Position numbers and translations under genes: made by a program. A stretch of DNA of 64,000 nt. It comes from Psammoneis japonica. Taxonomy: Eukaryota. The stretch is from NCBI GenBank assembly GCA_008632985.1, contig QPGO01000071.1, positions 1 to 64,000 of the forward strand, given 5' to 3'. Positions within the stretch are counted from its first letter, which is position 1, and every line of letters begins with the position of its first letter. Positions 14,096 to 49,514 of the stretch are shown here, one piece after another. The notes under the pieces are model-generated. The model was given only the letters and a program-made list of their open reading frames with translations. It was not told where the DNA came from and searched no databases.

Positions 14096-17000
14096 AATGC
14101 ACTCAAAGCCCTTGCACAGCAGAACCAATGATGACGATGATCGGAAACCTCCGGTGATCCCCACCAGATGCCCAGATGGCAGGGACTCGGAGAGAGACAA
14201 ACATGATGTTCGTGCAAAACAACCTGAATCTTCAGCCCAGCCAGCAAATGACAATCCCCCCGATGAATTTCAGGGCCAGCTTGGTGTTTTGGGAGAAAAG
14301 AGGCGTCTCAAAGGCCACAGAACGCATGACAAGAATGTGGTGCCTGGTGCTGTGGCCGTTGGTCCCACAGAGAACAAACCAGCTTGTTCGCACATGAAAT
14401 CTGTTGTGGACGAAGGCTGTCCTTCTTTGACGGCACCAAAACACCATGACATTGATCGCGAGAAGCAAAACATGCACCAAGGCATGCAATCCTTGTCCCA
14501 AGATGCTCTGCTCGAGGACAAGACCAGAGAAGTCTACAGGCATCGCCCGAGCATGGAAGAGGAGAAAACGGAGGAGGAGGAACCACACCAGGAAGGAACC
14601 CCATCCCATGACATGATTGACATGGCTCGGGCAATGAACGCACCAGCTGATGGGGAGGCCATCAAATCGAAAACAAACATGGCTCCATTGGTCGAGTTTG
14701 TGTCTGGACCCCATTTTACGACAAGGTCTGAAACCAAGGAGAGCATTCCGAAACATCTCTCTGCCGCCATTGGCGATGAATGATTGGCTGTGGCAGCAGA
14801 GGTCGTTCCTGGAGAAGAGGATCTTGAAGCCCAGGTGCAAGCTCGAGTCCACAAAGAAAGAGATGAAATTGCATCTCAAGTCCAGAAACAGATCATGGAG
14901 CAAGCCAAGCCAGCCGAGCTTGTGGTGATCAAAAATTCTGACGATGATGCGACCTTGTGCTGCAACAGGCAGAGGAAATGGATGGCCCTGATGGGACTTC
15001 TCGCAATGATCGCGACTGTTGTCAGTCTTGTTGTCACCCTTCTTCCGTCTGATTCCAACACTGATCCAGATCCCGATCCAGATCCAGACCCGATCAAAAG
15101 CAGTTGTGCGTTGTGTGAAGATGGGTTTTCTCCAGTGGACCCACATGATCTTGCTCTAGGAGAAGATGGTGTCACCCGCGCGGACTTCAATGAGACACTG
15201 GGGCAACTCAATGTTGCTGGTGAAGCTTGTTTGCAGGGACAAGCTCAGGCTTGGCGACACTGTGGTTGCCCCACCCTGCCCAATCTCCTGAGTGTGAACG
15301 TAACTTGTGCAACATGCATGAATGTGCCCATCCCCTTGGAGATGCCCCAGCTTCGTGTTGACAACAAATCATGTTCTGAGTGGAATGCACACATGGCGCA
15401 TGTTCTGTCAGATTCACCGGAGTGCAATTCGTTGAGGGCTGACTTGTGGGACGCCGTTGACCAATGCACGTGCATTGAGGATCCAACGTTTCTCCAGCAC
15501 ATTTCTCACAAACTCTTTCCTTTGTCTGGAGAAGCACTGTTGGAGGACGGAATGCCACAGAACATTGTGCTGAATTGGCTTGCGCCAAAGATCCAGCCAG
15601 CCTCTCTGTCAAAACCACCGTAAAGAAAATTCAAGAATGTTGTGCTCTTGCTGCACTGTGCTGTGCAACAGAAGGCATGACGCGGGATGATGACTGCACA
15701 TTTCTTTCGAGCAAAAATGCATGTGAGTGGAGCGATGGCAGCAACGGCGTTTTTGCGCTGGCAACGCCATTGAAAAAATCAGTTTGCGCAAGTCTTTGAA
15801 ATGCAATGTCCGGCGTTGCGAAGCTTGGTGTTTCTGACAAAAATTGCTGACAAATGATGAAACTTTCCACAGCTCACAATGGCTTGCACGGGATTCTCCC
15901 GCTTGAAATGAGCATTTCATCACAGCTGAAGTTCATTGAGGCAAACAGCAACAATCTCATCGGCACTCTCCCTCAAGAATTTGGTGGCCTTACAAAGCTT
16001 GAGAGGTTTGATGCCGATTTCAACTCAATGACTGGGTCAATGCCGGCATCGCCACTTGGAATCCAGAGTCTCCAAGAGTCATGGCTTGACGGAAATCAGT
16101 TTTCGGGATCAATGCCATCCGCTTTTGGAAAATCTCTGTCCTCCTTTGCATGCAAGGGTTGCCTGCTGAATGGCAAGCTGCCAGAATCTGTCGGTGACTT
16201 GAGTCTGTTCTGTCTTGACCTGTCATCTAACGGCTTCATTGGCAGCATTCCTTCCTTTTCCGGGAGTTCCAAATTGCAGCATTTGCATCTCAGTGATGAC
16301 GAGTTCACCGGAGAACTGCCTCCTTCTCTTGGCAGCCTCACACGGCTGGAGCAACTCCATCTCATGAACAACAAGCTGACAGGAACAATCCCCAGAGCAA
16401 TTGCCGCCTTGCCATCCTCAGTTGCCATTGACATTCAAGGGAATCATCTTTCTGGCCCCATGCCTCCTTTCACTGGCGACCAGGCATCAGAGGTCTGGGT
16501 GCATGGAAACAATCTTGCTGGCCCTCTTGACGAGTTTTTTGGCTCGTCCTCCTTGGAGACAATTGTGCGGGTTCGTTTCGAGAACAACCAGCTGTCGGGG
16601 ATCCTTCCTGAAACAATTGGAAATTTCGTCCATGTGGAAGAATTGGACATTTCGTCAAATGAAGTCATTGACAAGATCCCTTCCTCTGTTGGTGATCTTG
16701 CAAACTCATTGGATTGGATCTTTTCGACAATGAGCTTTCCGGCCCTCTGCCATCGGAAATCAGAAATCTGCTGGAGCTGGATTGGCTTGACCTCAATGGC
16801 AACTCCTTGAGTGGTGCGATTCCTCCATTGGTTGGGACCCTGCCTTCGTTGAGGTCAGTTCATTTGAATGGAGATGATTTGACAGGGGAGATTCCTCCTT
16901 TTGTTTTGGAAAAGCCAGAGCATCTGTGGCTTGCAGAAAATCAACTGGGCGGCAAACTCGAGAGCTTCTTCACCTCGACGAACCCAGCTTCATTGAGGTT

Positions 17001-17625
17001 TGTTAATTTCGTAGCGAACAAGTTGTCAGGAAGTCTTCCTGAGGCTGTCGGCAGTTTCTTGCAGCTCAAAGAGATGAAGCTGAATGAAAATTCGTTTGCT
17101 GGTGCCATCCCATCAATGTTGGGGAACCTTGAGAATGTTGGATTAGTTTGGCTCAATGATGCTGGGTTCACAGGTTCGATTCCAACGGCGCTTGGGCACC
17201 TTGGAAAGCTCAGCAGCCTTGATTTGGGACAAAACAACTTAAGTGGGACAGTGCCGACCAAGCTTGGAGGCTGCACTGGTCTCTCCTCACTGGGCATTCA
17301 GCTTTGTGGTCTCAGTGGATCATTTCCCTCTGTTGTGGCGAATCTCAAGAATCTCGGTGGGCAACCGTTTTGGAATGTGGCCAACTGATGCTGGAATTCT
17401 AGTGTTTGTGTTCCTGCAATGTCTCACACCATTGCACTTGTGTCATTTCGTGCAGAGGAGCTCTACATTCATGGCAATGCTTTTGCCAACACCTTCAGTG
17501 AAACATTTTGCATGCGAGAGAACTTGATTGATGTCCTCTCCTCAAACTGTCTCAATGATTCTGTGGATTGCTCATGCTGCTCTCACTGTTGCAATGCTTT
17601 TGGAAACAATTGCGTGGAACAGTGA
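14096..17625 (+). pseudogene. Leucine-rich-repeat receptor-like membrane protein pseudogene (diatom-expanded family)
   Basis: N-terminal 'PGAVAV' and 'LAVAAEVV', TM 'WMALMGLLAMIATVVSLVVTLL', Cys-rich modules, then plant-type LRRs 'L.L.NNKLTGTIP', an intron remnant at ~17357-17454 and a terminal 'CSCCSHCC'. Multiple frameshifts; the family motif RYALA.LYY reads 'CCALAALCC'. Confidence 0.85.
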
Positions 17626-18350
17626 TTCAGCACCACGAGTTGCTTTCGATTGTGTCACCTTTGGTGTCTTCCATTTCTTGTTTGTTGTTCATGGATGCGC
17701 AACCTGCATCAATCACATTTGACCTTGCATTCTTGAGACAATGACACATGCTTCCCGGCAAGGCGTTGCATTGTGAAGCAATGGCATTGCTTGCACAAAC
17801 TCTTTTTACCATTCAATGTAGACCCACAATTGTGGTGCCAATCGTCCGACGATTGCCCTCCGTCGCTCATTCCCTTCTCTTGCTTGTGACTGGTGCACTC
17901 CCTGTGCGCAGCACAATGCGTGTTGATGGAAAGCTCCTGACGAGCTGAACGAAGTCAAATGCATGTTGTGATGTCGGAGTGAGCAGTGGAAAGTGAATGT
18001 TGTGACATGGGGACATCCCAATGAATTCAGCCAGTGGCTAAAAACCTCCTGTAGAATTCTGCGCATTTCTCCTGACATGAGACACATTTGATGACAATGC
18101 CTTTTAACGCCACCCCATTGTTTTCTTTCATGTGCATGATGTCATTTGAAGTTTTTTGTTTTTGTGTTTATTTTTTAATGCTGAAAAGCTGAATGTTTCA
18201 TGTGAACGAACGTTGCAGTCAGCAGTGAACCATCACAGATGTGACACTCATGGGTTCAGCAAAATGGACAGTTGATCAGGCTCACTGCAAAGACACACAA
18301 ACCAAACGAAATAAAACATGCAATGACGGCCAGTGACAGTTGCACAAAAG

Positions 18351-18810
18351 CCAATCCAGGTGCATTTGTCGAGTTCCCAGTCCAGATGTTGTGAGCAAAT
18401 GACGCAAAAGCGGTCCCAGCACGCCCAACAACAAGGATGAGCGCGAGATTGATCACGCTCAACTCTGAGGATGCATGACCAAACAAATTGGGCACACAAT
18501 GGTGACCCAACATTGTTGCAGTGAAAGCCAATCTAGGTGTTTTTGTTGATTTCCAAGTCCAGCCATTGCACACAAACAACGCGAGGGCAGTTTCAGCACG
18601 CCCAATGCCCAACAACGAGGATGAGCATGAGATTGACAATGCTCAACTGTGAAGACACATTTCCAAATGAATCAGACACACAGCATCAGCGACAATTGTT
18701 GCACGTGAACCAGTCCAGGTGTTTTTGTTGAGTTCAAAGTCCAGCTGTCATGCACAATCAATGAGAAGGCAGCTCCGGATGCGCCCCAGATTGATGTCAG
18801 CAGCGCTGGT
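18351..18810. repeat. Decayed tandem repeat, ~180-bp period, ~2.5 copies
   Basis: 'aggtg..tttgt.ga.tt...agtccag' recurs near 18355, 18533 and 18714. Confidence 0.7.
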
Positions 18811-19074
18811 CATCCAGGTCGACCCCACAACCCAAAGCTCAATCCACATCACTCATGGGGCCTCAACGATGCAAACAACAGAGTGTCAATGCCCTGCTGT
18901 TGAACATGAGACAAAATGAACAACTGTGAGTGAGACAAGGGCAGGCAACAACACCCCCAAAAACATCAAAACACAACACTGTGCCACAAGAAGCACAACT
19001 GCAACTCAACACACTTAAATTTCTCACCACAATGCCACAAGGCATGCATGTTGTAATTCACATGACAGGGATTT

Positions 19075-22000
19075 TTGGACTTGCGAGGAGCAAGGCACAG
19101 GGTGCCATCTGGATTGCGGGTGAAGTCACAACCAAGATGGAACTCCAATGGTCCAGTGCCCTTCTTGAGCTTGAACTTGCATTTCTCCATGAGAGTGTCT
19201 GCAAAAGCCTGGGGGTCCTTCATGGCAAAGGCCAGGTCATCCACATGCACTGCCATGCATTTGCAGTGGTCACCATTCCCACGCAGCCAGATGTCAGGTT
19301 TGGCTTTGCACGGGAAGAAACCTTCGGCATGCAAGCAATCGGCAAAGCGTTCATGCCATCTGAGGCCGGAGCTGTGGAGTCCGTGCAAGGCCTTGTGGAT
19401 GACAAAGATGTGTCCTTCCAGCTTGCCAAATTTGGGGCCTGCTGCAATGTGCAGTTTCTCCTTGGTCGCATCTTCAAGATGGGCATTCCCAATGTCGGTG
19501 GCCCAAGTCTCCACCAGTTCATTGAGTTTGGCCAGGAAGATCATCATTTGCAGGCTGCGGAGAGACGCTGCTCTGGAACAGACACTGTTGACAGGTGTGC
19601 GTCTGTGAGGTGTCCATTGGCAACAAGCCTTGCTTTGTGCCGTCTGTCATGTTTGACATCACAGACGAGATGCACCCAAATCTTCTTGTGTCCTGATGGA
19701 GCGCTGGAATCCTTGCAATGTCCACAGTCATGGAAGACCTTGCACTCATCAAGCTGAGTCATCTTCAGGTCCGTTGCATCTCCCCACTTGCAGTTGCCAT
19801 TGTGCTCATTGAGGGCCAATGCATGCCTGCAGTCCCGGGGCACTTCACACCTGCACTTGTGTTGTGGCGCAGCATGAAAGGAGTGCAACTTGGCTTGATT
19901 GGCCATGCAGAATGGTTTCTTCTGATGCAGAGCCATCTTGTGGAAATGTTTCCATCCTTTGGTTTCAAGGAGGCCATGCTCACATGCGCAGATGGCACAG
20001 GTGATGGGATTGTCCTTGGCAATGATGGCAAGGGGTTCCACCAACATCATCTCCCCATTCCCCCATTCAAGCATGACGTTGCAGCTTGAGCCTTTCCAAG
20101 AGGGGTGGATCATGAGGTTGCAATGGTCTTTCTTGTGGTGCAATGCATTGGAACTTCCAGAGGGTGGTGTCTTTGTCTTCTTGCTCAATGTGGTGCATGA
20201 TGTCGTTCCAGGCAAGGACTTCCTTGCACTCATTGTTGTTGATGGAGCAAATGAACTTGACCAGTTCAGGGTTGTCTCCAATTTTCCAATCATGGTCTTC
20301 AACGGCTTTGATGATGTGGACTCTGTGGCATTGTCTGTCCTCTTGTGGCTTCATGAGGAAGGTGCGTCTGATGACCTCCTTGGGGTCAAAGACCGGCATT
20401 TTGGGCATCCTGATCCCCTCCCCATCTGGTGAATCCGGTGAATCCTTGGAGTCATGTTGGGATTTAATGACGGGTTCAGCAGATTCCTCATCAGGAGGGT
20501 CAAGACGCAGGTTTGGGGTGGACGGATCACGGGCAGAACATGTGTTGCAGTGGTGGAGAATCTTCTGAGTGTCAGAGAGGATCTTGAATGTCATCTGATG
20601 ACCAACGTGTTTGGCGGTGCCAATGAAGTGACCGCACAACTCACGGGATTTGGACGGCCAGTCAGAATCGTTGAGGTGGCAGTGCACGGGTTCCCACCAT
20701 TGAAAGTGCAGGGGCAGGCTGATGTCGGGGGCAGAGCTGGATGGCACCTCGGTGGGAGTGCACCAGCAAAGCTTGGCAGATGCCGCATGGTTGAGCACAA
20801 AGCACACACACATCAGGGCCCTTGGCCAGGAGCAGGCCGGGGATTCAAAGCAATCCATGATGGTGTTGGCCATGGTCTTCACAGTTTGGTGGTGGCATTC
20901 AGCAAAATTCTGGTGCTGTTGGTGGGGCTCGCTTTGCCAACTGGAGATGAAGAGGGCATGAAGGATGCTGAGAACCTTGTTGCTGATCTCAACCTGAGCA
21001 CGGTCCTGATGAGCTTGGATGGGGCACCATGATTGTGGATGTTGTCTTCAAGCATGTTGACAAATTCCTTGTCAGGTTTGGTTCTGTGCATGTCCATGAC
21101 AAGAGATTCCATGCCGACAAAGATCTGGGAACCGGTGCAGCCGGAGTCAATGGCGGGGGTGTCAGAGCACACCGTGTCAGTGGCAACGGGTTCATCATGG
21201 CGGTGGACATTGAGAGCCGGGTCACCCATGTTGGCAGGCATGTGGGTGCACTGTGTTGTGCAATCAAAAGCATGGCAAACAGTGTCCTTCAGGAGAAAGC
21301 CAAAATGAGGGCGCAGCAACTCAAAGTTGGGGTCCTTGGGATTGATCTTGCACTTGTGGCATTCGCAGAAGAAATCAGACGTCGGGAGCAGGTGGTCATC
21401 AAGGACAGAGTCCACAAGCATGGCATTGTTGATGACATGGCGGTGACGACAGTTGCCGAAACTCATCAAAGAGGTTGGCAGTTGGGTCGTCTTGGAGGTC
21501 AGACATGGCATCACACCACGTCTCATTGTTGGTGAGCTGATGGTTGAGGACAGATGGGTCCCAAGTGTCATTGCCAGTGAGGACGACATGTGGCAGGGTG
21601 TCCCATTTGGCATCGGTGTGTGGACACATGGCAATGTGCGGAAGGCCACCTTTGATGTTGATGGGAATGATGCATCCATCAATGGTGGTGATGGGCTGCA
21701 GACCGTTGGGGACCTTGATGGACCAATTGTTGATGTCGTGCTTGTGCCATTGGAGTTGACCACAAGAGTGTGTGGTCTTGCCCTTTCCAGTGTGGGCACA
21801 CTGGTGAAGAATGGCAATGACAGGTCCGTGTTGTGTGCAGATGACACCACCGGCAGTGACAACGGGAACATCGATGAGCTGATGATTGTCGATGCCTTGC
21901 ACGTCAACCTGGTGATCAGTGCAGGCAATGACATGAGAACATCATCACCGGTGATGCCACCGTTTGAGCCATGATCCACGAGAGCACCCTTGTGAGTCAA

Positions 22001-24422
22001 GGTGTGGGTTGATGCAGAGCAGACGACATTGTGATTGATGACATGACAGTGAGTGTGACCGTTGAGCTCAATGTCAGCATCGGCAGTGCAGGAAGGTGCA
22101 GATCCAGGGGGGTTCTTGCCAGAGCGGGCAGAAGGAGGCCGTTCAGGTGCCAAGAGATGTCACAAGTCACCGGGTGGCAAAGGCTTGCACCTGGTGAGGT
22201 GAGCCAGGATGGGGTTGACATTGGCTGTGATGGCTGCAGCAACAGATGGTGCGGCGGCCGACGCAAGATCATGAGCATTGGCTGGCAAGTTGACATTGCC
22301 ATCACTTCCAAGATGGAGAAGGTCACGCAGGTTGACTGCCATTGAGTCATGGCAGTTGCCGGCGTGGGCGGTGCACACGCCAAGGATGATGGCCTTGGTG
22401 GACTGAGGCAAGGTGCCCAGATGCGCTGGTGATCCGGCAGAATGCAACGCCATTGTTCCCTGGTGAGGGAGGTGCCATGAGTCTGTGCAGCGCAGGCTTG
22501 AATGACGTCAATGGGATGAACGGCGTTCTCAAGCATGACGCGTTTCTGGTCAGCAGAGAAGTGGGGTCTGCACTTGGAATGAGAGCTTTGCACTTGCATG
22601 GCTGGTCCTGCCAGCGAAGTGTGAAAGCATGGGTGGAGCCTTTCCAGGTGCCATCACCAAGGCGAGCAGTGGTGAGGTGCGTGAGAAGGGTTGAGGACTC
22701 CAGGGATGTGCGGGCAGAAGCAAGAGCGCACTTGGACAGGTCACGATGCACCGCTTGAGCATCAGAGGAGCCGACATGTTCACGAACAAGTGCCTTGCCT
22801 TTGTCATTCTGCAAGATGTGTTCAAACATGGTGAACATGCACTTCTGTTGTTCATCAAACAGGGCCTTGTCCTCAAGCTGCAGAGGGACTGCACGTCGGA
22901 TCGAGGGTGCAGTCGACGTCCTGGGAGCGGGCCTGTGTGATGACAGAGGTGTGCCACATGTGCCACTGTTTGTTGGACTTGAGAGTCACAAAGGCAAGTG
23001 GGTCAGGTTTGACACCTTGTTTAAAGCCATGCATGGGGTCACATGGTTTTGGTGGCAACAAGCCAGGAGCAGGAGCAGGGGCGCTGTGCCCATGGAGAGG
23101 GACGTCACATGCTCGGGACTGAGACAACAGTCAGTGAACTCCTCATGTGTGAACAAGTGGGGGTCATTGCTGACATTGGCACCACCGTGCACTTTTGCCG
23201 TGTACAGACTAATCAGTGCAGCCATCTGTGCTTTGCAGCCACATGGCAAGGGCATTTGATTGGTGCCGTCATTGCAATCTGGGGCATCCAGTTGCGTCGA
23301 GCAAAGGTGAAGAGATCCTGGCACGAGTCAGTGCCGTCAATGTTGAGGGTGGAGTGCAACGGAATGTCTGCGGCTTGATTCGGAACAGTGCCTAGAATGT
23401 GCTTGAGGCCATTGATTTGTTGCTGCCTGGTGAGGACCGTGTTGCAACTGGGTGGGTGTCGGGACACCAGCTGGAGTTGGAGGGTGAGCTTGAACCAACT
23501 TGAAACTTGACTTGAATCTTGGCTTGAAGTCTTGAACTATCTCATGAGTCAGAAGCCACCAGCCAATGACATCTTGCTCATAGTTGAGTGCCAAGCTTCC
23601 CATCCGGTCCGCAGAGTTGTGCCGGCACGTTCGAACCCACAGCTGGCAACACTTTGGGATGTCTGAGAGCGGAGTGACGGGTTAAAAACCCCTGCTGACA
23701 AGCTGACCAGAGGTGGACAAGACCTCCAAACCATTCTCATTTTATGTCGGTTGGATGACCCGATCAGGCCGGCCAAGTTTGGCACTGTGGAGGGACGAAC
23801 AAATGCAGGAAATGCACCCTTGCCCCAATGCAGGCTGCAATCACGAGCTGCTTCCTCTCACAGTTGTCCTGGTGGGCCTCGCAGCACTGTAGAAGACCAG
23901 CAATCCGGTGCAGATGTGAGGCAGCAGACTTGGCATGCGTGCAGCAAAGCCAGAGTCAGACGATTGTGTCGTGTTCGCGTGAACGCGTGCGGATGGATTG
24001 GTCTGTCTGCCAACCAGGGTGGAGTCCGCTGCAGGGAATCCGGAATCTCGCATGTCTGAGAGTTCGGGAATTCCTGACCAAACAAATGTCTGTTGAACAA
24101 ACACATCCAACGACGGAAGGCATGCTGACAGAAATTGAAGATGACTGGGTGGAAGAAAACAACAACTTTCCTTGCTGCTGTCCAAATGGCAGATTGGCCG
24201 GAAGCCGGAAGACTGGTGTCGTTGACATCGGCGCCACTGTTGTCATTCTTGCGAGCCATGTGGCTTGAAAGCAAACTGCATCACACGATGCATGCGGAGC
24301 TGAGAGCACACACAATCATGTGTGACAAACTAAAATCTTGTTCAAATCCTGTCTTTGAGGTTTCCAAGTGTGCGACCTTGGCTTGACTCCCTCGCACAGT
24401 GTCAGTGGAACCTGCGCCAACA
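19075..24422 (-). mobile_element. Decayed Ty1/copia (CoDi-type) LTR retrotransposon, truncated inside RT
   Basis: Gag-like 'FKQGVKPDP..F.TLK..KQW', protease-like 'ALVDHGSNGG', integrase-like 'EPVATDTVCSDTPAIDSG', RT 'LVCDVKHDRRHKARLVANGH', 'DIGNAHL', 'KALHGL', 'HVDDL'. No RNase H or 3' LTR found. The 5' boundary (TGTTGG at 24422) is tentative. Confidence 0.9.
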
Positions 24423-24449
24423 TTTTGCAATCTGGGTTTCCCATCTGTG

Positions 24450-26228
24450 CTTGGAATTTCACGTTCCATCATGGCTCTTCTTCTTTCAGCAATGGGTTGT
24501 CTTCAAACACACCAGCGCCTTGTGTCGCATCGATGAAACCATGACAAGATCAAACATCGGCTCACCAACTGACGAGTGGCACCATTTCGTGTGTCACTCC
24601 AAAATGGTTGGCTCAAATTGGTTGCTGTCTCTCTTTAGATGGTGGCTGCATTGGTGCTCCAATGCGAGCAGATCTTTGAGTTCTTCATTGCCCATGTCAT
24701 TCAAAAAACACACTGCTGTCCCTGAAACAAGACTCTCCCTCCCGCAACATTTCTGAGCAAATTTTACCCAGTTGCAAACAGGTTTTCCAGAATGGCACCT
24801 TGGGTGTGCCCTGACCACCCCAATGCCGTCTGTGTGCACTTCTGTGGACCCCATCATGCAAGTGGCTGTTGGGCAATGCCTTCTCACAGCATGGCACAAA
24901 CATTTTGTTGCTGACAGAGGCAGCTCTGGTCCTTGGGTTTTTGAGAACCATTCCTGGGTTGCGTGGGCCCAGGTTTCAGCCAGCTCCATTGTTCCCACAC
25001 GAAATTCCACTGACACTTCTTGCACAGGACCCTGGAAGACTGCTTGGAACTTGGTGCCATTCCCTTGCTCCTTGCTTTTTGACATTGAGTTGCTTGGGCA
25101 GAGACTGCAAGCGGACCTGGCGGTTGAGGCCAGCATCTTTCCTTGCAGGTTCTTGGCTGTTTGGATTGCAAAAGAGCCATGATGCTTCTGGGCTTGTGAG
25201 CCCAGGTCCTTCGCAAAGCACTTGTGGTTGCTCTCCATCCTGTCAGTTTTGCAGCCATCTGGGGATCCACACCCAGACATGTTTTTTGGTGAGTGCTCCA
25301 GACACTCAATTTTTTGAAGGTCCCATCCATTTCCCACACTTCAGCTTCAACTTGCCACTTTTTTTGCCAACTTTGACTCAAGGGGCCGTTCCAAGAATGC
25401 CTTTGATCACAACGGCAATTGACTCTGAAGCCCTTTCCTCACAATTTTCCCCATCCGTCATGTTGTTGGCATTCCAGAGCCCATCTTTTCTCTTTGTCCA
25501 GGCATGGAAGCACAGAAGCATTTCCATTGGTTGAGCCCAGTTGTTTGTGGCAAGTTGGTCTTTGTCGTCACAGTCCATCCAAGTTGCTTTGAGTGCTTGA
25601 CATTCCTCCGCAGAGGACTCTTTCAAGTCATTGGCCTTCTTGCATGATTTGCTGCGATGTTTGTTGAGTGCATTGGTGAGCCATCTCTTCTTGATTCCCA
25701 TTCTGAGAACAGCGGCAATGTGGGACAGGGCACCAATGTGCTCGGTTGCCCTGAGGCAGCTGAGATTCGTCACACCAAACACAAACTCTGCTTTTGGGCA
25801 ACCGGACATTTCTGTTTGTGATTTCAGGTTGACAACAAGGTGCAGCATTCTTTCAAGGTCTGCCCTTCCACTGTTGCCAAGACATTCATGGAACACCTCA
25901 AGCACCTTCTTCATGACACCTTCGTCAAAGGCATGCATCAGATTGGTTGGTGTCATGCAAAACACTCCACCAACTGGGTCCACATTCAGTGTTTTGAAAA
26001 AGCATTGCACACCAGATGAAGGGACATTGATGACAGGGATTCTTTTGCTTCATCTCTGCGTGCTTCTGTGTGGTCAGTTGGACCCAACGCCACATGCATG
26101 ATGGGCTCCCACTTTTTGTGAGTCAGAAATTGGCACTTGTGGCTGGGGTCATGTGTGTGGTCACTGGGGCAGTCACATGCCCAATGAAGTTGGCTGGCTT
26201 GGTTCCTTCCACACACAGAATTCTGAGC
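24450..26228 (-). mobile_element. Decayed Plavaka-like (CMC-related) DNA transposase fragment
   Basis: Motifs 'GGVFCMTPTNLMHAFDEG', 'FGVTNLS.L.A.E..G', 'GNGWDLQK..CLEH', 'GSP....DRMESNHK.FAK', 'AHPRCHSGKPVCNW' resemble Plavaka-type transposases. Frameshifted. Confidence 0.6.
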
Positions 26229-28801
26229 CACAGCCTGGGATGGATGTTTGTTGTGCTTGAAGTGCTCTCTCAAGATCAAGGTTGAAACATTGAGAAGATT
26301 CATCCAGTTTTGTTTGGCTGCTTTTTTGCAGGCTCGAAGGAGAAGATCAGTTTTGATGGTGGTCAAGGAGGTTGTAAGGTGATGTGACTGATCAGCTGGA
26401 GCAGGGCTTCATTGGATGGGGGGGGGGGGGGGTTGAGCAGCTTGGCTGAGGAGCCAGAGTCGGCTCCAGGACGCAAGTGCACATGAGGCTCTGCTGGGTT
26501 CTGGGTTGACCTCAGAGGAAGACTTTTTGGATTTCAATGCCTGAGAAAGAACTGCCAGGACAGCCTGAGAAGGTGGCTGTTCTGCAGGTTCCACTGGGTG
26601 CTTCCAAGGAGAGCACTGTTTGGATTCAAGGACCTTTGGATCCACTGAGCCCAAAGGTGTTTTGGCAGGCTCCACTGGGTCATCCTGGGAGGGAGGCTGT
26701 TTGGATTTAGGTGCCTTTGAGTTGTCCATTGTGGTGCAATGGAGGATGAGTCCATCTTTTGAAGTGCTTGGGATTGTTGCTGTTGAGTCTTGAGAGTCAT
26801 GATCCTGTGGGTCAATGACTCCCATTGGCTGGGTTGGTGTGCTCACTGAGCATGTTGTGAATCATCTCTTGTTGCTCAAATGCTTGTTTCTCTGTGCTGT
26901 CTGGGCTTTCTTGCAGGGTGTGGTTCATTGCACATTGTGTCTGGGGACAAATGGGTTGTTGTCTGTTGTGAGTGGGTGGAAGTCATTGGTTGGGTGGGAA
27001 CTTGATCCTGTTGATCTGACATGGGTGGGGTGGGGGGTGCGGGATGGAACTTGATCCCTCGTCTCTTCTGGATGTTTCTTGTTTTCTTGTTTGCTTGGAG
27101 CAGTCTAGCTTGCACACGTGTGGCACTTGGGGTTGGCATGTCATGAGACCATTCAGCCTGCAGCCATTCTTTTCTTCTGACAAGTGTCACCCAAGAAGAT
27201 GCCAGCTAAAAACTTGGCTTTTTAATCTTGATCACCTTGTCAGGCTCAAAGGCACAGCACTTCTCTGCCAGCCCCAGAAGCAAAATCCCACCATGAGACC
27301 TTTCTGCAAACTCTGCTGACAATTGCTTGCACAGTGCAACAGCAGGTCTTCATTGCCACCTGTTTGCCCAACACTGCAATGCCTCCCATGCCTCAAAAGC
27401 TTGGAGTGGTGGGTCCACACTTCCTTTCATGCACACCATCATGTGCAAGCAAAAGCTTGCTTGATGACATTGGATTTGCTCTCCATTTTTCTTCTCAGTT
27501 TTCCAAACTTTCAACCCTGTTTTCCATGCAGCTTTGTCACACCAGCCCACCAGTCTTGGTTTTGCACTCAGAGTGCTTTCTTTTTGCATGTCATTCATGT
27601 GAAGAGATCACACTCCTTGCTTCAAATCACGTTTTCTCTGTTGTTGCCAGTCTTGGGACACTCAGGTGCAGAAAAACTTGTCTCTTTTGAGTGTGTTGCA
27701 AACTTTCACAAGGAGAAAGCTCTCCACATCACTCACATGACCCACATGCTGGCCGCCAAAATCTTTTTGGTGACACTTCACATTTGTCAGCTTGAGCAGA
27801 GTGGTGTGCAGCCCTGCACACGTGCATCAGTCAACTTGGCTCTCCTGCTGGTCCAGGCTTGTTTTTCTTTTTGTCTTTGTTGCTGCCCATCTTTGACCCA
27901 CTCACTTCTTCTTCAAGATTGGCAACATCTTTCCAAAGCAGAAGTTGGGCTCACACCTTTTTCCATGTCTCCAAACAGAGGAGGAGCAACAAAGCCAATG
28001 CTGACCAAGTTTGGGCTCCTGTCAATTTCTGAGCACCAGCCCTTCTTTTTAGAGACCCTGGAAACTCCTGTCTGTTGCACCACAAAAGAGTTTCTCACTT
28101 TGTTGGAGTGGCCAGCACCCAGTTGCTTGCACACACTGTGTTTGTTTTGCACATCTTGGCTTTGTTTCATCCAAAAACCAACCTTGCTGTGTCCACTGTG
28201 TTGGCGCACATTTCCAGCAACGGCCAACACTCAAGTCCCAACAGCACCAAGGGGAGCAGAGTGCCAGGGCTGGCAGGCTTCATTGCTGCACCTTTTGCAG
28301 TGACAAGATCTCTTTTTTGTTTGCTCCAAACAAAGAACAAGAGCAAAGATCTGGAAGACAAGATCACAGCCAGAAGCAAGTGGGGCTCAAACTTCTTCCT
28401 GGGTCACCAAAGCTCACATTGGGAGGTTTTATTTTCTTGAATTCTTCCACAAGGATTTCAGATTTCCAGATTTGCATGATGACAATTCAATGGATTCAAT
28501 CATGCTGCACCACAGCCCATGCAGGTGCATCTTCAGCACTGGACGTTGGAGGGAGTTTGGAATTTCAAAACTCCAAAATCTTTGTTCAACACAGAGACTT
28601 CAATGCAAAGCCACAAAAAAGTGCAAAGATGCCATTGTGAGCACCATGGTGGCCCGTGGTGGAGCTGAGCAGCAGCACCATTGTTGCAGCTGTGGTGGAG
28701 GCCCTCAAAACAGCACTCCTTCAATGCATTGCGCTCACTGCAAGAGTGTGCGGTGCCATGACAAAGCTTGTCAACTCAAGGACTGGCCTCGACACAAGAA
28801 G
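26229..28801. repeat. Right arm of the inverted duplication, ending in a decayed copy of the MYND gene 5' end
   Basis: Reverse complement of 10441-13063. 28646-28801 encodes 'MVARGGAEQQHHCCSCGGGPQNSTPSMHCAHCKSVRCHDKACQLKDWPRHKK'. Confidence 0.9.
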
Positions 28802-30824
28802 TTTGTCAAATTTTTGTCATCTGCCCATCAGTTTCTGCCTCCAGACCCAGCACTCACACAATGCTCATGGCAAAAACTCAGTGCAAACATGCAAGCAATG
28901 GCGCTGCTGTGATTGGCCCATCTGCAACCACTCTTTTGCCTTCCAATGCTGAAACAAAACAACACAGCAAATCACCCCAAAGTTTGTTGTGTCAAACTGT
29001 GCTTCTGAGTGTGCAAACACACAATGATGTCAACAATGATGATCAATCATCTGGTCACACCAATGTCGCTGGGCATTTCCATCATTCATTTTGTGCAGTC
29101 TCTGGAGTCGACATGCCAAATCACTCCCATCCAACCATGTCTTTTGTCCGTGACTGATGGCACACAGAACATCTTCCCCACCATGTGCAATTTTTTCACA
29201 TTCATGGCTGGTTGAAGGAAAAGGGAAAAAGGAGGGATTCGACCGTTGAGCACACACACAAATTGACCATGCAACCAGGGCCAGCAGAGTTGCACTGGCT
29301 TCTTTTGGTCCAGAGTGGTTGCTGCAGGTGCAGTGAGTGGGGCACATTGCAGCAGCTGCAGGGGGGTGACAATGTGACACCAAGTGTGTGCTGCCAAGCT
29401 GAGCAGTCCAGCTTGGTTGTGAGCCAAGCCCTGCCAGGCCAGTTGCTTTGGCTCCAGTTGCTCCCACATTGTGCACGTGTCAATTGTTGAAGGAACACCA
29501 CCACATTGACTCAAAAGCTGTGTTTTGAGCAGGACAGAGAGAGAAAAATTGTCATCTTGACTGGTGCTTGCTTTGGACTCTGCATCATGAGCGCAGGCAG
29601 ATGCTGCACACAGCCATTTTTGGCACCTCTCTTTGGTTGCCCACTTGGCATTGTCAACAAACTCTTGAACACAACCTCACTCAGAGTTTCTTCACTCTTC
29701 AACCACAAAAGCAGGTCCAACTTTTTGTTGGCTTTTTTGTGGCCGGGGGTCTCTGTTGCAGGCACAAATGGTGGGCACATGCCACACCATGTGGCTGCAG
29801 GGTGACAATGTCATGCCACCAAGCATTCCGGCAGAAGCGATCGAAAACCCCAACTCACTGTTGACATTTCTGTGTTGGTCAGAATTTGAAATGACCGCCA
29901 CCGTCAAGCACGCAGCTTTCTTTGCGTCAAAGTAGAAATGACACTCAATGATTTAAACTGCTGTGATCATTTGGCTTTCTTTGTGTCGAAGTGGAAATGA
30001 CACTTGACGATTTACACTGACTCACTTTGGCTCGAAGTCAGATGAAGAGATTGGGTCGCGGGCTTGTCGCCAACCAGCCACGAGCATGAAATGTTCGCCG
30101 ATTTGCACGCACCTTGAGGAAGCACCGGCAGGGCCTTGTGGCACAGCGGCGCTGCTCAGCGGCACGTCGCATGAGCCATGTGCAGGGGTTGTGAGTCCCG
30201 AAAAACAGGGTTTGGTTGGGCCGATTTCTGGCACAAAACTCACGTAGAAAATTCGTGTGGAATGCCTTGTTCGTCGTGCTTTTCCCATGCTTTGCAAAAA
30301 ATGGGCCACAACCTCAAGGAATTGATTTCAGTCACAATGGTTGACACTTTGCGTGCTTGCTCTTTTTGATGACAAACACGACGATGTCCGCTGTTCGTTG
30401 GAAAATGTTTGCCGTGGTGGCACGGTGGTGAAGTGTTGATCGAATTTCTGAAAATGGAATTTTGAAGTGTTCACGCACAGAATCGTGTTACTTGTATAAA
30501 AGTCATCATGTAAAGTGTCAATGGTTTCAGGGGAAAACGATTCCTTGAGGCGTCGGTGGAGCAGAGAAGCACGAGAAAAAAATCGGCCCAAACCCTAATT
30601 TTTATAATTTTTTCTACGTAGAATTTCTACGTGATTTTTGTACCAGTGCACATGGCTTATTGGTACCGCGGTACAAGCATTGGTGGTTTCTCGTGATTTA
30701 TTATTACAAATATTACAACAGGGCGATCCAGGAAACTTCGAAGACTTCGAAAGATTCCATATTCCATGACATTTCTGTAAATTATTCTACGTGCAGAGCT
30801 CGTAGGTTGTTGGTACTTTTTAAA

Positions 30825-31641: not shown

Positions 31642-32510
31642 ACTTGTCGCTTCGATTGTACGTACCGTATCTCTTGTTGACGGAATACATGCAACGCAAC
31701 TTGCCAGAGGCCATGTCCATTGTTGGCACAGAAGAAGATACCCAAGACAATAACAACGAAGAAGAAGACAAGAACAAAAGTGTCAACTCATTGCTCCGCA
31801 ACCCCCTGCTGCCACATTTGATTTGGCAACACATGCAACTCGAAACTGAGAGGAAGAAAAAACCCCAAAACGAGACAGAAAGAGCTATCTACCTCTAGTA
31901 GTTAGCGGTGATCGAGGAAATGCTTTTACAGAAATACTTGTAGTAATTACACACGTGATTGGTCTACCAAGAGGGTCACCCAATGCCCTGGCTAGATATT
32001 CAACGCATTCGTACAATTAATATAATCAACCTAACCTACACTGTATGGTATGGAATCTTTCTATACATCAATGCACCGCTTCTCCTTCAGCGCTGTTTGC
32101 AGCTGACGGATCATTTCATGATTGGATGGCAACGGTTTCTTCCACACCAAATCGGCTTCAGCATGCCGAAACGTGGATTCCATGTCATTTCCAGAGCAAT
32201 CTACAATGACCGGCTTGGATGAAGAACGCCGCATGGCAAGGACGACATCGGCACCCACCATGAGCCCTCCAGCTCGCTCCATGTGCTCATCCTGTGTGAT
32301 CACGTCAAAGAGCTTTGCAGTTGTTGTTGACGTTGCCGTTGTGTCCTCTCCACGAACACAAGTACCACGGCGAATCTCGAGAGCTTCTGGCCGCTTCCGT
32401 GTAATGGTACAGTTGGGGCGATAAACTTTTGAAGGCGTCTAGACAGCATCAAACGATTCACCGGCATGTCGTCCACAATCAGCATCGACAGTGGCTCTTG
32501 TAAAGGAGCA

Positions 32511-33520
32511 GGGGATTCCCCATCTGTGAAGTGATAATTTGGTGTGAAGTGATCACGTAGAATTGTACGTATTTTTTCTAGTGCTGAAATTCTGATCAGA
32601 ACGCCACCAACTTATGTTGTGATTTGTTAATGGATGTGATCATTTGCGTGCAAATCGCCACAGTAAAGTTTGCCGTCGAGTTCCAGATGAGAGAAAAATC
32701 TATCCCTCCATCTCATCTCTCATCTCTCCTCCACTCAACTTCTAAGACAAGGATGATCGAGGTGGGAGAGGCAGAGCAAACGAAACTGAAGGCTGACATC
32801 GCCAAGCAATCGAAAGCGCTCGACGAGTTTGATGCACTTCGCTCCAGTACGCCTCAGTACGGTGAGTACGAGACGTTGAAGGGAGATGAGCTGAAGATCT
32901 TGATTCGGCTGGTTTGTCCAAACGCCGGTTTGTTAGGGAAGAGCATTGAAGTAAAGAAGAAGGAGCTTAAAGAGCGGAACGTTACAAAAGAATATCTCGA
33001 CTCTATTTACGTTCAGAAAAGGCGCGATCTCGATGACCTCAAATCAAAGCTTCAGAACTCTTCGGCTGATAGTGATTCTGACGACGAAGACCAAGAAGAA
33101 TTGCTTTAAATGAATAATCGTCTACATCATCTAGACACTTTGTGTGAATTTTCATGAACGGTTGTGATGAGAACCAAATTTCGTTAACTTTTTGTGAGGA
33201 GAAATGTGTCAAGTGATTTTTGATAAAGGACCTCGCAACGAAAGAATGTTGCACTTATGGAAGAGACGTCCGTTACGTAACGGCTATTTTCTTATCGTAA
33301 CGGTTGATTGTGCGGTGCCAGCTGTCTGCTCAACCCACTTGTACCAAGCCACGTAGAAAAATCGCGTAGCGGAAATCCAGTGGATGATAATTCTGTAGAA
33401 AGCTACGATGCCTGGTATGATAAAAGGAGAATTGGGTCGAGTGATCATCAATCTATTTTATACCAGAGGCTACGTGATTCTACGCCTGACGTCATAATCA
33501 CTTCAGAGATGGGAATCCCC
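32511..33520 (+). mobile_element. ~1-kb non-autonomous TIR element carrying a ~118-aa ORF remnant (32752-33109)
   Basis: GGGGATTCCCCATCTGTGAAGTGAT ... ATCACTTCAGAGATGGGAATCCCC. Flanked by CA on the left and TA on the right, compatible with a TA target (Tc1/mariner-like). Confidence 0.8.
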
Positions 33521-33522
33521 TA

Positions 33523-33754
33523 GGGGATTCCCATCTGTGAAGTGATAATTTGGTGTGAAGTGATCACGTAGAATTGTACGTATTTTTTCTAGTACTGAAA
33601 TTCTGATCAGAACGCCACCAACTTATGTTGTGATTTATTAATGGATATAATCATTTGCATACAAATCGCCACAGTAAAGTTTGCCGTCGAGTTCCAGATG
33701 AGAGAAAAATCTATCCCTCCATCTCATCTCTCATCTCTCCTCCACTCAACTTCT
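33523..33754 (+). mobile_element. Second, truncated head-to-tail copy of the left end of the same element
   Basis: ~230 bp identical to 32511-32743 apart from 6 A/G substitutions and one C-run indel. Confidence 0.9.
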
Positions 33755-35354
33755 CGCCGAGAAAAAAAAAACGCAAAAACCGTCATCCCGACTCGTCGAC
33801 CATGGCCCTAAGATCACTAACGTTGTCATTTCCTGAGGTATCTTGGTAGTAGAGTACGAGGAAATGACAGTGTGCTCTCATTGGACGACTACGTTGTGCC
33901 AGACGATATCAACGGCGTGGCTTCTCCTTGTGCGTAGTATTCGTCGTCGCCATATGGTGGAAGTGGCAATAAAATGGTACAATCCGTGCCGGGACGAGCC
34001 GTTGGGTCGCTCTCAAAACGACTGGAGCCGCCCATGGCCTCACAAATTTGCATGGCATAGTTCAATCCCAAGCCCGTACCATTGGCTTCTCCACTCGCCA
34101 CAAACTTCTCAAACACAAGTTTCTGTTCCTCTTTCGGTATCCCAGGACCCGTGTCTCCTACATCACGACAAGTGATTGTTGTTTCCACATCTTCCCATCC
34201 CACCCACAGCTGGATGGATCCAGTGACAGTATACTTCATTGCGTTGGATACAACATTTTGCAATACCTGTTGGATACGGTGGGCATCTCCCATGACAATG
34301 TCATGCGTCGTCGTAGTTTCTGCCTCCCATGTAAACTCAACACCCGACCGCAAGGAAGGGAGGGTCATTTTGTGAACATCGCAGACCAGTTGTCGGAGCG
34401 AAAAGCGATGTACGTGAAACTCCATTTTGCCCTCGTCAACCTCTCTCGAGTCCAAAAGGTTGTTCAAAATAGACGTACACTGCAAAGATTCATTCCCTCG
34501 ACCGATTCGCCATTGTCTCGGGAAGCTCCTCGGGCGGTGGCATGGACCCCAAGGCACTCGACATGGCAGAGAGAGGACTGCGCAGTTCATGAGCAAAGTA
34601 GGCCTGGATGTTTCTTTCCGTCTCAGCCTTGGCGCTCTCGGCCAGTGCCGTGCCCGTCATGACGGTGGCAATCTGGGAGAGAAATGTTGCCTTTGCCTTT
34701 CGGGCGTTTGTTTTCCATGCGCTCTCCTCAACGTGTCGACTCTACAGAATCTTTTAAAAAGGTGTTTCAATTCTTTGTCTTCTCAGCAATGATTTCAGTT
34801 ATTCAGTTTCGTCTGCCTCTCGATTCAGAGCTATTCAAATAGACTTTTTTGCTTGCTACAGGAAAAGCAGCCGAGCCTGCATAGGAGAACCTCGTATGCT
34901 ACTGTTTCAACATTGGACGAGCTGCTGTGAATGGTAGGTCTCTAGAGAGTACCGGTTTTCCATTTTCTTGGTTTTGTACCGCACCCTACGAAAACCAGCA
35001 CCACCACCTCACTGACCCTCGCATGATACTGCAGATTCAACAGTAGCTAGAGAAGCGCAGTTGCGAATTTTCCCGACACAGAGTGCCTTATTTCACAGAT
35101 TTCTGGTTTGGTACCGCACTTGCGAAGATCGGTACCACCCCCCCCCTTTTGCATTGTTGTCTTCGTGTAGACAACAAAATAATTGAAGAACACCTTGCAA
35201 CCGGATCGTTCGAGAAACAAAAATAAGCGAAGGTTTAGTTTTTCGGTCGAACCCGTACAGCCAACAACCTCCTGTCATCATGGACCCAAAACGCTTGACG
35301 TACTCATTTCCCCGTGTTGAAGCAATTACCTTTTAGAGAGTGTTAGAGAAGAAA

Positions 35355-49505: not shown

Positions 49506-49514
49506 ATTTTGGAT

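Follow-up and report, generated by a model that had tools for sequence, protein, structure and literature searches.

The window analysed here, the whole stretch of 64,000 nucleotides, carries a hybrid histidine-kinase-like gene that is interrupted at a TA, within the coding region of its linker, by a composite insertion of 1,300 bp (Table 1). The insertion consists of a 1,010-bp non-autonomous element with terminal inverted repeats (TIRs; element 1), followed by the truncated 5′ part, 286 bp, of a longer relative (element 2). The TIRs of element 1, at 32511-32538 and 33494-33520, are 27-28 nt long (three TIR matches, with 0 expected), and its interior (32744-33493) is part of a more abundant repeat, showing a contig depth of 500-2400 against 58 for single-copy sequence and loose contig ends at 32744 and 32763. 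Contigs of element 2's family also have loose ends, showing that its other copies extend past 33793/33806. An allele lacking the insertion is present in the same sample: in X1 and X2 contigs, 32508 is followed directly by 33809, with TA at the junction. The TA target-site duplication (TSD) and the TIRs are both Tc1/mariner-like features, and the arrangement resembles gap-repair derivatives of that group in its duplicated TA, its TIRs, its non-autonomous derivative and its one-sided truncated copy at a TA. No transposase was found within the window, and the superfamily of element 1 was therefore left unassigned. The 118-aa ORF in element 1 had no Pfam family, and a protein search gave 39 candidates, none with E <= 0.001; TIR scans of metagenome contigs and of viral contigs returned 0 matches each. 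In composition the insertion looks unmutated on the whole (TpA o/e 0.59, compared with 0.58 elsewhere; CpG o/e 1.10), which is what a recent insertion that is still polymorphic should show.

Table 1. Positions of the features discussed, numbered from the first letter of the window.
Feature	Position	Strand	Details
TpA-poor block, 4.2 kb	3315..7520	.	TpA o/e 0.11, CpG o/e 0.55, CpA+TpG o/e 1.62
TpA-poor block, 19.1 kb	10831..29933	.	53 TpA, TpA o/e 0.04, CpG o/e 0.35, CpA+TpG o/e 1.70
Degenerate Copia-type reverse transcriptase	18969..19646	-	inside 10831-29933; conserved Tyr replaced by Cys/His
Interrupted hybrid histidine-kinase-like gene	32061..34656	-	HATPase_c 33889-34596, receiver-like start near 32485
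Two flank positions	32465..32468	.	filled haplotype CA + TG, both empty-allele contigs TA + TA
Left target-site duplication, now CA for TA (T→C at TpA)	32509..32510	.	sequence and empty-site contigs
Element 1, non-autonomous TIR element, 1,010 bp	32511..33520	+	TIR matching, depth
Copy 1 of common 5′ end	32511..32743	+	233 nt, G alleles, extra TIR C
Difference cluster	32583..32650	+	68 bp, six G (copy 1) vs A (copy 2)
118-aa ORF in element 1	32753..33109	+	
TA joining element 1 right TIR to element 2 left TIR	33521..33522	.	sequence
Element 2 stump, 286-bp 5′ fragment	33523..33808	+	contains copy 2 (33523-33754), A alleles
Right TA of target site	33809..33810	.	sequence and contigs

The two elements share their 5′ end. 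Pairwise comparison of copy 1 with copy 2 (232 nt) revealed six substitutions and one indel, an additional C in the TIR C-run of copy 1. The substitutions (sites 1-6) lie at 32583/33594, 32626/33637, 32636/33647, 32638/33649, 32648/33659 and 32650/33661 (copy 1/copy 2); copy 1 has G and copy 2 has A at every one, and five are TpG in copy 1 and TpA in copy 2. The exception is site 5, which is CpG in copy 1 and CpA, not TpA, in copy 2. The 164 remaining common positions showed no difference. Within the cluster span five of the seven TpA steps of copy 2 are TpG in copy 1, and outside it 0 of 7 are changed. This comparison reproduced the full list given in an earlier note on this DNA: the C-run indel, the six G/A differences, the five TpG/TpA pairs and the 68-bp span. 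The note also held that shared CpGs were untouched, which is correct for the six CpGs common to both copies, although one difference does lie in a CpG, site 5 being the seventh CpG of copy 1. The 'two adjacent TE ends' that it described come from two different elements and not from a local duplication: the copies diverge internally at 32744/33755, and other copies join 32744 to different upstream sequence. The extra C is missing from both copy 2 and element 1's own right TIR, and the indel is therefore derived in copy 1.

Independent point mutations of the ordinary kind, alike by chance, would have to account for a small number of events, six, but the pattern is difficult to reconcile with them. 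Six changes of one transition class in one direction are expected with a probability of ~4 x (1/4)^6 = 0.001, clustering of all six in 68 of 232 nt gave p of about 0.008-0.012, and, read as A→G, the TpA context at five of six sites gave p = 0.002 (of the 65 A's, 14 stand in TpA). A coincidence of this kind is scarcely credible. Read as G→A, the TpG context gave p = 0.10 (of the 45 G's, 22 stand in TpG), so that the context alone is compatible with this direction as well.

Elsewhere in the window two blocks, together ~23 kb, are strongly depleted in TpA (Table 1), with a TpA o/e of 0.58 in the rest of the window. The total of YpR steps is preserved in the blocks despite the loss of TpA and the gain of CpA+TpG, the longest stretch without TpA is 2,557 bp, and the saturated block ends 2.5 kb from the insertion. 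The degenerate Copia-type reverse transcriptase (RT) was compared with 25 RT homologues. At the eight columns with Tyr in at least half of these, the residues in the window are C,H,H,C,C,H,S,Y, so that Tyr has become Cys or His at six of eight conserved columns. One of the eight columns precedes the catalytic-box VDD. These replacements set the direction of change in the block as TpA→TpG/CpA. A 2.6-kb repeat behaves likewise: the copy outside the block has TA at five steps where the inside copy has TG or CA, with no case of the reverse. Erasure of TpA in this direction was thus shown to exist in the window at a distance from the insertion. The blocks contain the Copia RT and an LRR gene fragment, and 50 of the 52 other block ORFs belong to no family; no recognised viral genes were present among the block targets (Copia, the LRR fragment and repeats). 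Mobile DNA is represented among the affected sequences by the Copia RT and the transposon end; the LRR fragment, the ORFs without a family and the changed unique flank positions do not fit mobile targets so plainly.

An origin of the TpA-free blocks in base-modification miscalls was considered and rejected, because a two-strand consensus would keep TA and create CG. Tyr-free RT relatives and TA/TG/CA polymorphism, moreover, turn up in public assemblies besides this one and among contigs of the runs, which also contradicts it.

A Copia family of eight copies was assembled from metagenome loci. It contained 48 three-state sites at which TA, TG and CA all occur, and only 5 of its 201 variable YpR steps mixed TA with CG. 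Judged from their sequences, these copies carry what is the same TA-hub footprint as the contigs of the transposon family in the window. Identical conversions were recurrent in several of the copies. The presence of the footprint in related metagenome Copia copies makes the question extendable to many genomes.

The earlier note described the six differences as the product of a processive, strand-coordinated burst. All six do lie on the same strand, but with 5-6 events only (p about 0.03-0.06), and the neighbouring in-place changes at 32465, 32468 and 32509 fall on both strands. Strand-coordinated clusters in other TE copies, for which it proposed a test, were approached through the partly mutated metagenome Copia copies, where a weak excess was detected: 173 of 314 neighbours within 40 bp were on the same strand (55% vs 50%; the copies are non-independent), a count equalled in 97 of 2000 shuffles, with 97-319 of 2000 shuffles equalling the same-strand excess overall and per-copy runs z of +0.47 to -1.93. 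In the copies of the 2.6-kb repeat, TG/CA double differences formed 10 runs vs 14 expected (z ~ -1.6). A runs test on the order of TG and CA in the saturated blocks gave z = -0.03 and -0.44, with dispersion not above that of normal sequence, and is uninformative on strand coordination. Exposure of the edited A's in a hairpin was also considered, and the fold of 33575-33680 was no better than that of shuffles (z = -0.12). Processive strand coordination is, overall, weakly supported.

The flanks of the insertion provided changes that can be polarised against the empty allele. As the earlier note had pointed out, the left flank reads CA at 32509-32510 where TA would be expected, and the empty-site contig does read TA. 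The two further positions, 32465 and 32468, lie 41-44 bp left of the insertion. A parsimony argument over three haplotypes and four flank SNPs was set aside, as the X2 contig, which has TA at all four, is possibly chimeric between two haplotypes.

Contigs of the runs confirmed part of the window sequence; those of X1 and X2 could be aligned to it, and run X3 gave no aligned contig. Record 11 of the X2 contigs (33618-33838) contains the A alleles of sites 2-6 together with the right-flank junction of copy 2, with 0 other letters, and contigs also agree with the window over 33809-34000, again with 0 other letters. The G alleles of copy 1, however, were found in no aligned contig; the read check envisaged in the earlier note, made on contigs, supports sites 2-6 of copy 2. 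Both contigs that cover 32635-32650 differ from the window there, no aligned X1 or X2 contig carries the window letters at 32465, 32468 or 32635-32650, the depth at these places lying on other letters, and no aligned X1 contig carries the window alleles at 32363-32468. It could be that the G's of copy 1 and the CA and TG just to its left were introduced by mistake during assembly or polishing, the stretch being both repeated and heterozygous. Note, however, that assembled contigs pop heterozygous bubbles and lose variants, and that the filter drops records, so the missing copy 1 alleles are uninformative both ways. The letters of copy 1 are moreover not those of the contig majority (T in the window at 32637, C in both contigs covering copy 1 there), unlike the result of simple mis-polishing, and the agreement over 33618-33838 and 33809-34000 is complete. 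An error of this type is very unlikely.

Other contigs of the family were informative about the individual sites. The depth-weighted majority was A at sites 2 and 4 and tied at site 3, and no dissent from A was seen at sites 5 and 6, in each case among the 40 of 107 variants listed. Of the 321.8 depth units over copy 2 at sites 2 and 3, only 132 had G. Sites 3 and 4 carry TA, TG and CA states and no CG; at site 6 one contig has CG, which may have been the ancestral state at that site. At 27 places the window has A or T where other family contigs have G or C, and 21 of these are TpA in the window (p = 5e-12). The window copy is not simply the family majority everywhere, since it has TpA at both 32859 and 32868 and the sole contig aligned there (depth 279) has TpG.

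A different interpretation of these data accepts the same mutator and the same direction, and dispenses with a recent burst: the G and A versions would be older variants of two source elements, and their adjacency incidental. This would fit with the two ends coming from different elements whose interiors diverge, with the occurrence in other family contigs of both A (sites 2-6) and G (sites 2, 3, 5 and 6), the latter leaving room for the established subfamilies that the earlier note named as a refutation, and with the recurrence of the same conversions across metagenome Copia copies. It accounts less well for a single 68-bp cluster beside 164 identical positions, and for a combination of alleles in copy 1 that was absent from all aligned family contigs; at site 4, where both contigs over copy 1 have A, G is private to copy 1 and occurs in no other aligned contig. 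Next to the cluster, in addition, the changes in the TSD and in the flank necessarily arose in place. We consider the older-variant explanation unlikely, while giving it real weight.

The direction of change could also be the reverse, with a strand-coordinated G→A burst in copy 2 (on the minus strand C→T, at CpA five times and at CpG once). The TpG/TpA pair is the dinucleotide of fungal repeat-induced point mutation (RIP) read backwards, CpA→TpA is the classical RIP context, and the substrate, a direct repeat 1 kb apart, would be suitable. RIP resembles the process considered here in being a defence tied to homology or repeats that introduces transitions into mobile DNA within a dinucleotide context and can leak into flanks; it differs in that it makes TpA from CpA, and in the process considered here TpA is destroyed. 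To our knowledge RIP is known only from fungi. Site 5 would fit CpG decay, the CG at site 6 in one contig and the private window TpA at 32859/32868 point the same way, and the one-sided stump of element 2 is what abortive gap repair would be expected to leave. Candidate agents would be a RIP-like process acting through the diatom DNMT4, or cytosine deamination of single-stranded DNA during the gap repair that truncated element 2. PMC9998398 relates diatom DNMT4 to fungal RID and gives its function as unknown.

Several observations argue against this reversed direction. The polarised local change, in the TSD, is TA→CA, and both the window and the independent Copia family show the opposite process only. 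There is no TpA excess in the insertion: its RIP indices, TpA/ApT (high under RIP) and (CpA+TpG)/(ApC+GpT) (low under RIP), are 0.60 and 1.15 vs 0.63 and 1.22 in the background, its TpA o/e equals that of its surroundings to within 0.01, and the indices of the blocks (0.05 and 1.86) are reversed with respect to the customary RIP thresholds. RIP usually strikes both copies, and here the six changes are one-directional between them. The majority for A at sites 2 and 4, the absence of dissent at sites 5 and 6 among the variants listed, and the three-state TA/TG/CA sites without CG are likewise unfavourable. The reversed direction, with the agents that it would call on, is improbable.

Derivation of copy 1 by A→G, as the earlier note had proposed, is by comparison of the sequences favoured, not proven, because a TpA→TpG/CpA process of demonstrated direction operates in the same window, the TSD changed from TA to CA, the TIR indel is derived in copy 1, the family contigs have a TA hub, and A is in the majority at sites 2 and 4. 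The accompanying proposal, that no prior CpG decay is needed, agrees with the CpG o/e of the insertion. With roughly even confidence, the six differences may be read as footprints of TpA-targeted transitions on mobile DNA, with copy 2 ancestral and copy 1 altered. The changes would be TpA→TpG, or TpA→CpA when the opposite strand is hit, in a diatom-like genome, with the process of the blocks presumed to have made the six changes. The composite transposon inserted at a TA and was then probably changed in place, and the affected part of the filled haplotype would be a stretch of ~190 bp (32465-32650) that takes in the cluster, the TSD, where TA has become CA, and the flanking gene, with its two TA→CA/TG changes. 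The agent may be an enzyme that modifies bases on a single exposed strand at any one time. One candidate is an adenine deaminase of the ADAT2/TadA-like type put forward for Bigelowiella natans; thymine oxidation at TpA is an alternative agent. At site 5 (CpA/CpG), either the same patch would include an off-target A or the copy 2 lineage would have undergone unrelated CpG decay.

We know of no such TpA-destroying process described before a 2026 preprint. In the accessible text of that work (Mettrop et al., 10.64898/2026.01.13.699255), the viral and foreign DNA integrated in B. natans is described as hypermutated specifically at TpA: mutation-accumulation lines had 231 mutations in two regions, of which 230 were A→G/T→C, all 230 on TpA; over the long term TpA was lost and CpA+TpG gained in clusters of 1-kb windows; and TpA-poor coding sequences were enriched for reverse transcriptase and DDE endonuclease. 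The same text mentions neither strand-coordinated clusters nor diatoms. The window shares with this system, as there described, regional confinement and, in the blocks, TpA-confined transitions to TpG or CpA according to strand. TpA is the target at five of the six differences, at 21 of the 27 family places, and in the TSD and two flank changes; regional TpA depletion with CpA+TpG enrichment is seen in 3315-7520 and 10831-29933; and all six differences are A/G, with A→G the favoured direction at these sites. The two systems differ in host, B. natans being a chlorarachniophyte and the present genome that of a diatom-like stramenopile, and in targets, which are viral and foreign DNA in B. natans and here comprise a Copia element, a fragment of an LRR gene, repeats and the end of a DNA transposon. 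A TpA o/e of 0.04 is far more complete than the Rho of 0.45 given for B. natans's NCLDV region in the accessible text, and CpG decay accompanies TpA loss in the blocks here, unlike in B. natans.

Other known systems match less closely. ADAR hyper-editing fixed in retroelements and APOBEC kataegis both leave deamination footprints that are clustered and coordinated by strand. ADAR, which has a preference for a 5′ U, needs an RNA intermediate, whereas element 1 is bounded by TIRs and a duplicated TA, its empty site is exact, and the TSD and unique flank are changed too. APOBEC acts by C→T at TpC, which is absent here. Decay of 5-methylcytosine at CpG, as in methylated diatom transposons, is at work in the blocks too (CpG o/e 0.35-0.55) and could account for site 5, but five of the six differences lie off CpG, one being at CpG, and the CpG o/e of the insertion is 1.10. 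A literature search found no paper on TpA erasure in diatoms, and for A-to-G or adenine deaminase genome defence it found only fungal RIP papers; PMC12220804 held nothing relevant on deaminase or hypermutation.

Diatoms may, tentatively, possess a TpA-directed DNA base-editing defence like that of the chlorarachniophyte, proceeding from single-strand patches at element ends to near-total TpA erasure over tens of kb; on balance we lean against so broad a claim. Under such a defence, patches would spill from the element end into the TSD and the flanking gene, and the end state would be free of Tyr, TAA and TAG codons. A TpA-destroying defence would then not be peculiar to one chlorarachniophyte and would extend to diatoms, which are major marine primary producers, and its targets would include transposons in addition to inserts of viral origin. 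Being heterozygous, with an empty allele in the same sample, the locus would serve as a natural 'time-zero' substrate in a search for the enzyme and for the signal that targets it. A barely touched polymorphic insertion so near a saturated block offers a handle on the onset of targeting, on one-strand editing and on the order of CpG methylation. TpA erasure strips its targets of all tyrosine codons and of two of the three stop codons. The spurious long ORFs and the GC-rich islands without TpA that result will mislead gene finding, as well as searches that look for foreign DNA by composition.

Dinucleotide counts per kilobase, together with the positions of TpA, revealed two sharply bounded blocks of the window that are nearly without TpA. 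Over its 19.1 kb the larger block has 53 TpA steps, and the longest stretch within it that is free of TpA measures 2,557 bp. The blocks are larger and stranger than the cluster of six A/G differences to which the earlier note had drawn attention. Within the blocks the four pyrimidine-purine steps add up to an unchanged total, and therefore both TA and CG have been turned into TG or CA. As neither TAA nor TAG can occur, ORFs in the blocks are artificially long. At 15851-17385 (plus strand), inside the larger block, leucine-rich-repeat ORFs (LRR_1, E = 3e-24) lack tyrosine, and a host-like gene fragment has therefore been swept along.

Features of the window, with observed/expected (o/e) dinucleotide ratios for three stretches (TIR, terminal inverted repeat)
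Feature	Position	Strand	TpA o/e	CpG o/e	CpA+TpG o/e	Detail
Smaller TpA-poor block	3315-7520		0.11	0.55	1.62	
Larger TpA-poor block	10831-29933		0.04	0.35	1.70	
Right-hand stretch	30301-64000		0.58	1.03	1.17	
Degenerate Copia-type reverse transcriptase	18969-19646	minus				RVT_2, E = 2e-12; inside larger block
Element 1	32511-33520					1,010 bp; 27-28-nt TIRs
TA after element 1	33521-22					
Second element, left end	starts 33523					
Interrupted hybrid histidine-kinase-like gene		minus				insertion within linker coding region
HATPase_c of that gene	33889-34596	minus				
Receiver-like start of that gene	near 32485	minus				

The direction of conversion in the blocks can be demonstrated by tyrosine content, by the Copia reverse transcriptase (RT) and by an inverted repeat. 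Tyrosine makes up 0.1% of residues in ORFs within the blocks versus 2.3% outside. A search of 1.84 billion representatives with the RT gave 5,090 matches at E <= 0.001, the best 150 of which were listed, and 25 of the top 41, picked for greatest query coverage, were aligned. Tyrosine is present in half or more of the 25 homologues at eight columns; there the window RT has C, H, H, C, C, H, S and Y, with Cys or His at six of eight. The RT catalytic box normally starts with tyrosine; in the window protein a His stands before its VDD. The inverted repeat (10441-13063 and 26229-28801; 2.6 kb, 84% identity) lies near the two ends of the larger block, and over 365 aligned nucleotides one copy is outside it. 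In this comparison TA outside stood against TG (four) or CA (one) inside at five steps, with no case of the reverse, and CG was kept outside at 12 steps, with one case of the reverse. One copy of the repeat contains the block border (about 10830). Both copies have lost nearly all CpG (5-8 per kb left) and show 26 TG-versus-CA double differences.

Relatives of the RT were then sought in metagenomes using a profile of the window RT and its relatives; 603 pattern matches yielded 338 confirmed loci, the best 80 of which were kept. Four of these 80 combined a TpA o/e below 0.35 with a CpA+TpG o/e of at least 1.29, a frequency biased because the search patterns included Cys/His variants. In the window copy and the seven loci whose TpA o/e was under 0.45, positions aligned with the Tyr of a normal relative were Cys or His in 63 of 87 cases, versus 31 of 801 in the other loci. 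Eight loci form one family (86-93% identity) whose TpA o/e is graded from 0.71 to 0.25 over the aligned segments. Among its 201 variable pyrimidine-purine steps, TA, TG and CA occurred together at 48, TA with either TG or CA at 54, CG with TG and/or CA at 85, and CA with TG alone at nine. TA was mixed with CG at only five, and therefore TpA erasure and CpG decay are separate processes, each with its own hub. Tyr-to-Cys/His replacement with TpA loss was also recorded, to differing extents, in the metagenome Copia relatives L053, L058, L063, L045, L064, L065, L066, L067, L073 and L079 and in the library proteins P0145, P0172, P0225 and P0122.

Strand coordination in the eight-locus copies was weak. 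Runs tests per copy gave z from +0.47 to -1.93, and among conversions within 40 bp of each other 173 of 314 neighbours were on the same strand, a value reached in 97 of 2000 shuffles of copies that are not independent. The window's saturated blocks showed no same-strand coordination. The processive, strand-coordinated burst proposed in the earlier note remains a weak claim.

The six differences themselves lie between two transposon 5' ends, copy 1 (32511-32743) and copy 2 (33523-33754). The repeat is real: the copies align over 232-233 nt and differ, as had been noted, by one C-run indel, located in the terminal inverted repeat, and six substitutions. At 32583, 32626, 32636, 32638, 32648 and 32650 (sites 1-6), copy 1 has G and copy 2 has A throughout, five being TpG versus TpA and 32648 being CpG versus CpA. 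All six fall within 68 bp, and the remaining 164 common positions are without difference; simulation gave p of about 0.01 for the clustering, and for six transitions that share class and direction the arithmetical probability is about 0.001. The six CpGs common to both copies are intact, as claimed, but one difference falls in copy 1's seventh CpG.

A pattern search found three TIR copies in the window versus none expected by chance. The two adjacent ends are indeed transposon ends, but they belong to two different elements at one TA and are no local duplication. Since other contigs continue beyond 33793/33806, copy 2 is the 286-bp remnant of a longer element. Inside element 1, the stretch 32744-33493 is a repeat of greater abundance (summed depth 500-2400) that elsewhere adjoins different upstream sequence, with loose contig ends at 32744 and 32763. 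When contigs from three coded runs of one sample were compared with the window, contigs of run X1 (9,555 nt, depth 58) and run X2 joined 32508 straight to 33809, so an empty-site allele without the 1,300 bp exists in the same sample. Its target site is TA; in the filled allele the left-hand dinucleotide is CA and the right-hand one TA. The right junction and the A of copy 2 at sites 2-6 were both carried by an X2 contig (record 11; 33618-33838, no other letters); none of the contigs matched to the window from the three runs had the letters of copy 1 at 32635-32650. Downstream of the insertion the receiver-domain frame of the histidine-kinase gene (32300-32440, minus strand) shifts, also in the empty-allele reading; a sequence error, a small intron or decay to a pseudogene could account for this. 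The window differs from the empty-allele contigs at five of 209 nt left of the insertion and at none of 192 nt right of it; the four listed left-flank differences (32363, 32409, 32465, 32468) are all TpA versus CpA/TpG, two per sense.

Polarity was judged against a family consensus, an approximation from contigs that covers sites 2-6 and draws on 40 of 107 variant rows. In favour of ancestral A, the window has A/T versus G/C in family contigs at 27 listed places, of which 21 are TpA in the window (p = 5e-12); a further three are cluster positions at which copy 1 has the T of its TpG. Sites 3 and 4 are TG in copy 1, TA in copy 2 and others and CA in other contigs, never CG, which favours TA as the only state one step from both TG and CA. 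Site 4 is A in both contigs matched to copy 1, G accounts for 132 of 321.8 depth units at copy 2's sites 2 and 3, and none among those 40 rows dissents at sites 5 and 6. The extra C in copy 1 is a derived state when compared with copy 2 and with the right TIR of copy 1's own element. The CA of the left target-site duplication (TSD) is an in-place TpA-to-CpA change, as the insertion mechanism must have written TA; two positions 41-44 bp to the left of the inserted DNA (32465 and 32468) are CA and TG in the filled haplotype and TA and TA in both empty-allele contigs. The whole insertion, with a TpA o/e of 0.59, has background composition, as would be expected if the copy is young, still polymorphic and near to its master in sequence.

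In the opposite, RIP-like reading, G would have become A in copy 2. Bearing on it, diatom DNMT4 is described as related to fungal RID and without known function (PMC9998398). The TpA context is significant in the A-to-G reading alone (p = 0.002, versus 0.10 for G to A), and the family's CpG o/e of 1.10 indicates that CpG is not decaying. Against ancestral A, other contigs also have G at sites 2, 3, 5 and 6, site 3 becomes a tie once depths on both copies are summed, one contig has CG at site 6, site 5 is not in TpA context, and the contigs do not bear out copy 1. Moreover, the sole contig over 32859 and 32868 (depth 279) has TpG at both, against TpA in the window. These are Tyr codons (TAC) in element 1's 118-aa ORF and TGC (Cys) in that contig; therefore either the abundant version was converted or the window copy is derived. 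The A-to-G direction and the link to a mutator proposed in the earlier note are favoured but not proven.

A TpA-destroying transition process is present in this genome and its relatives; the six differences share its context, and in-place TpA changes adjoin them. Copy 1 or its immediate source may have been struck on the plus strand at five of the seven TpA of the 68-bp span, the hits probably lying within a patch of about 190 bp (32465-32650) across flank, TSD and element end. The agent would probably be an enzyme working on transiently single-stranded DNA, and an adenine deaminase of ADAT2/TadA type, put forward in a preprint on Bigelowiella natans (10.64898/2026.01.13.699255), is a candidate. 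The alternative candidate would be oxidation of thymine at TpA with mispairing thereafter. The plus strand is non-template for element 1's own ORF, and the host gene is transcribed convergently through the copy 1 end, so transcription-linked exposure or double-stranded RNA guidance are possible, though speculative, triggers. The region around the cluster folds no better than shuffled sequences.

According to a 2026 preprint, two integrated viral regions in B. natans mutation-accumulation lines mutate about 1,000 times as fast as the genome remainder, 230 of their 231 mutations being A to G or T to C, all at TpA; reverse transcriptase and DDE endonuclease are over-represented in clusters and coding sequences poor in TpA and rich in CpA+TpG, and an ADAT2-like adenine deaminase is the authors' proposed agent (10.64898/2026.01.13.699255). 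Its text mentions neither 'diatom' nor 'stramenopile' (10.64898/2026.01.13.699255), and further literature searches yielded no account of TpA erasure in diatoms. On these sources the phenomenon is of a kind described once, in another lineage, and the window would hold its diatom member, seen at saturation and possibly at onset.

The window's APC8/Cdc23 protein is 54-60% identical to its best named relatives, from the diatoms Attheya, Cyclotella, Skeletonema and Thalassiosira, and 70% identical to its best match without a name; the source organism is therefore a diatom or closely related to diatoms, with no near reference. An ORF at 35355-36344 (minus strand) encodes a prolipoprotein diacylglyceryl transferase (LGT, PF01790, E = 2e-42), a bacterial-type enzyme, here on a eukaryotic contig. 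At 47653-48183 and 48713-49356 lie repeats with a length of about 180 bp, in tandem or nearly so (72-86% identity), besides an inverted pair at 49513-49832.
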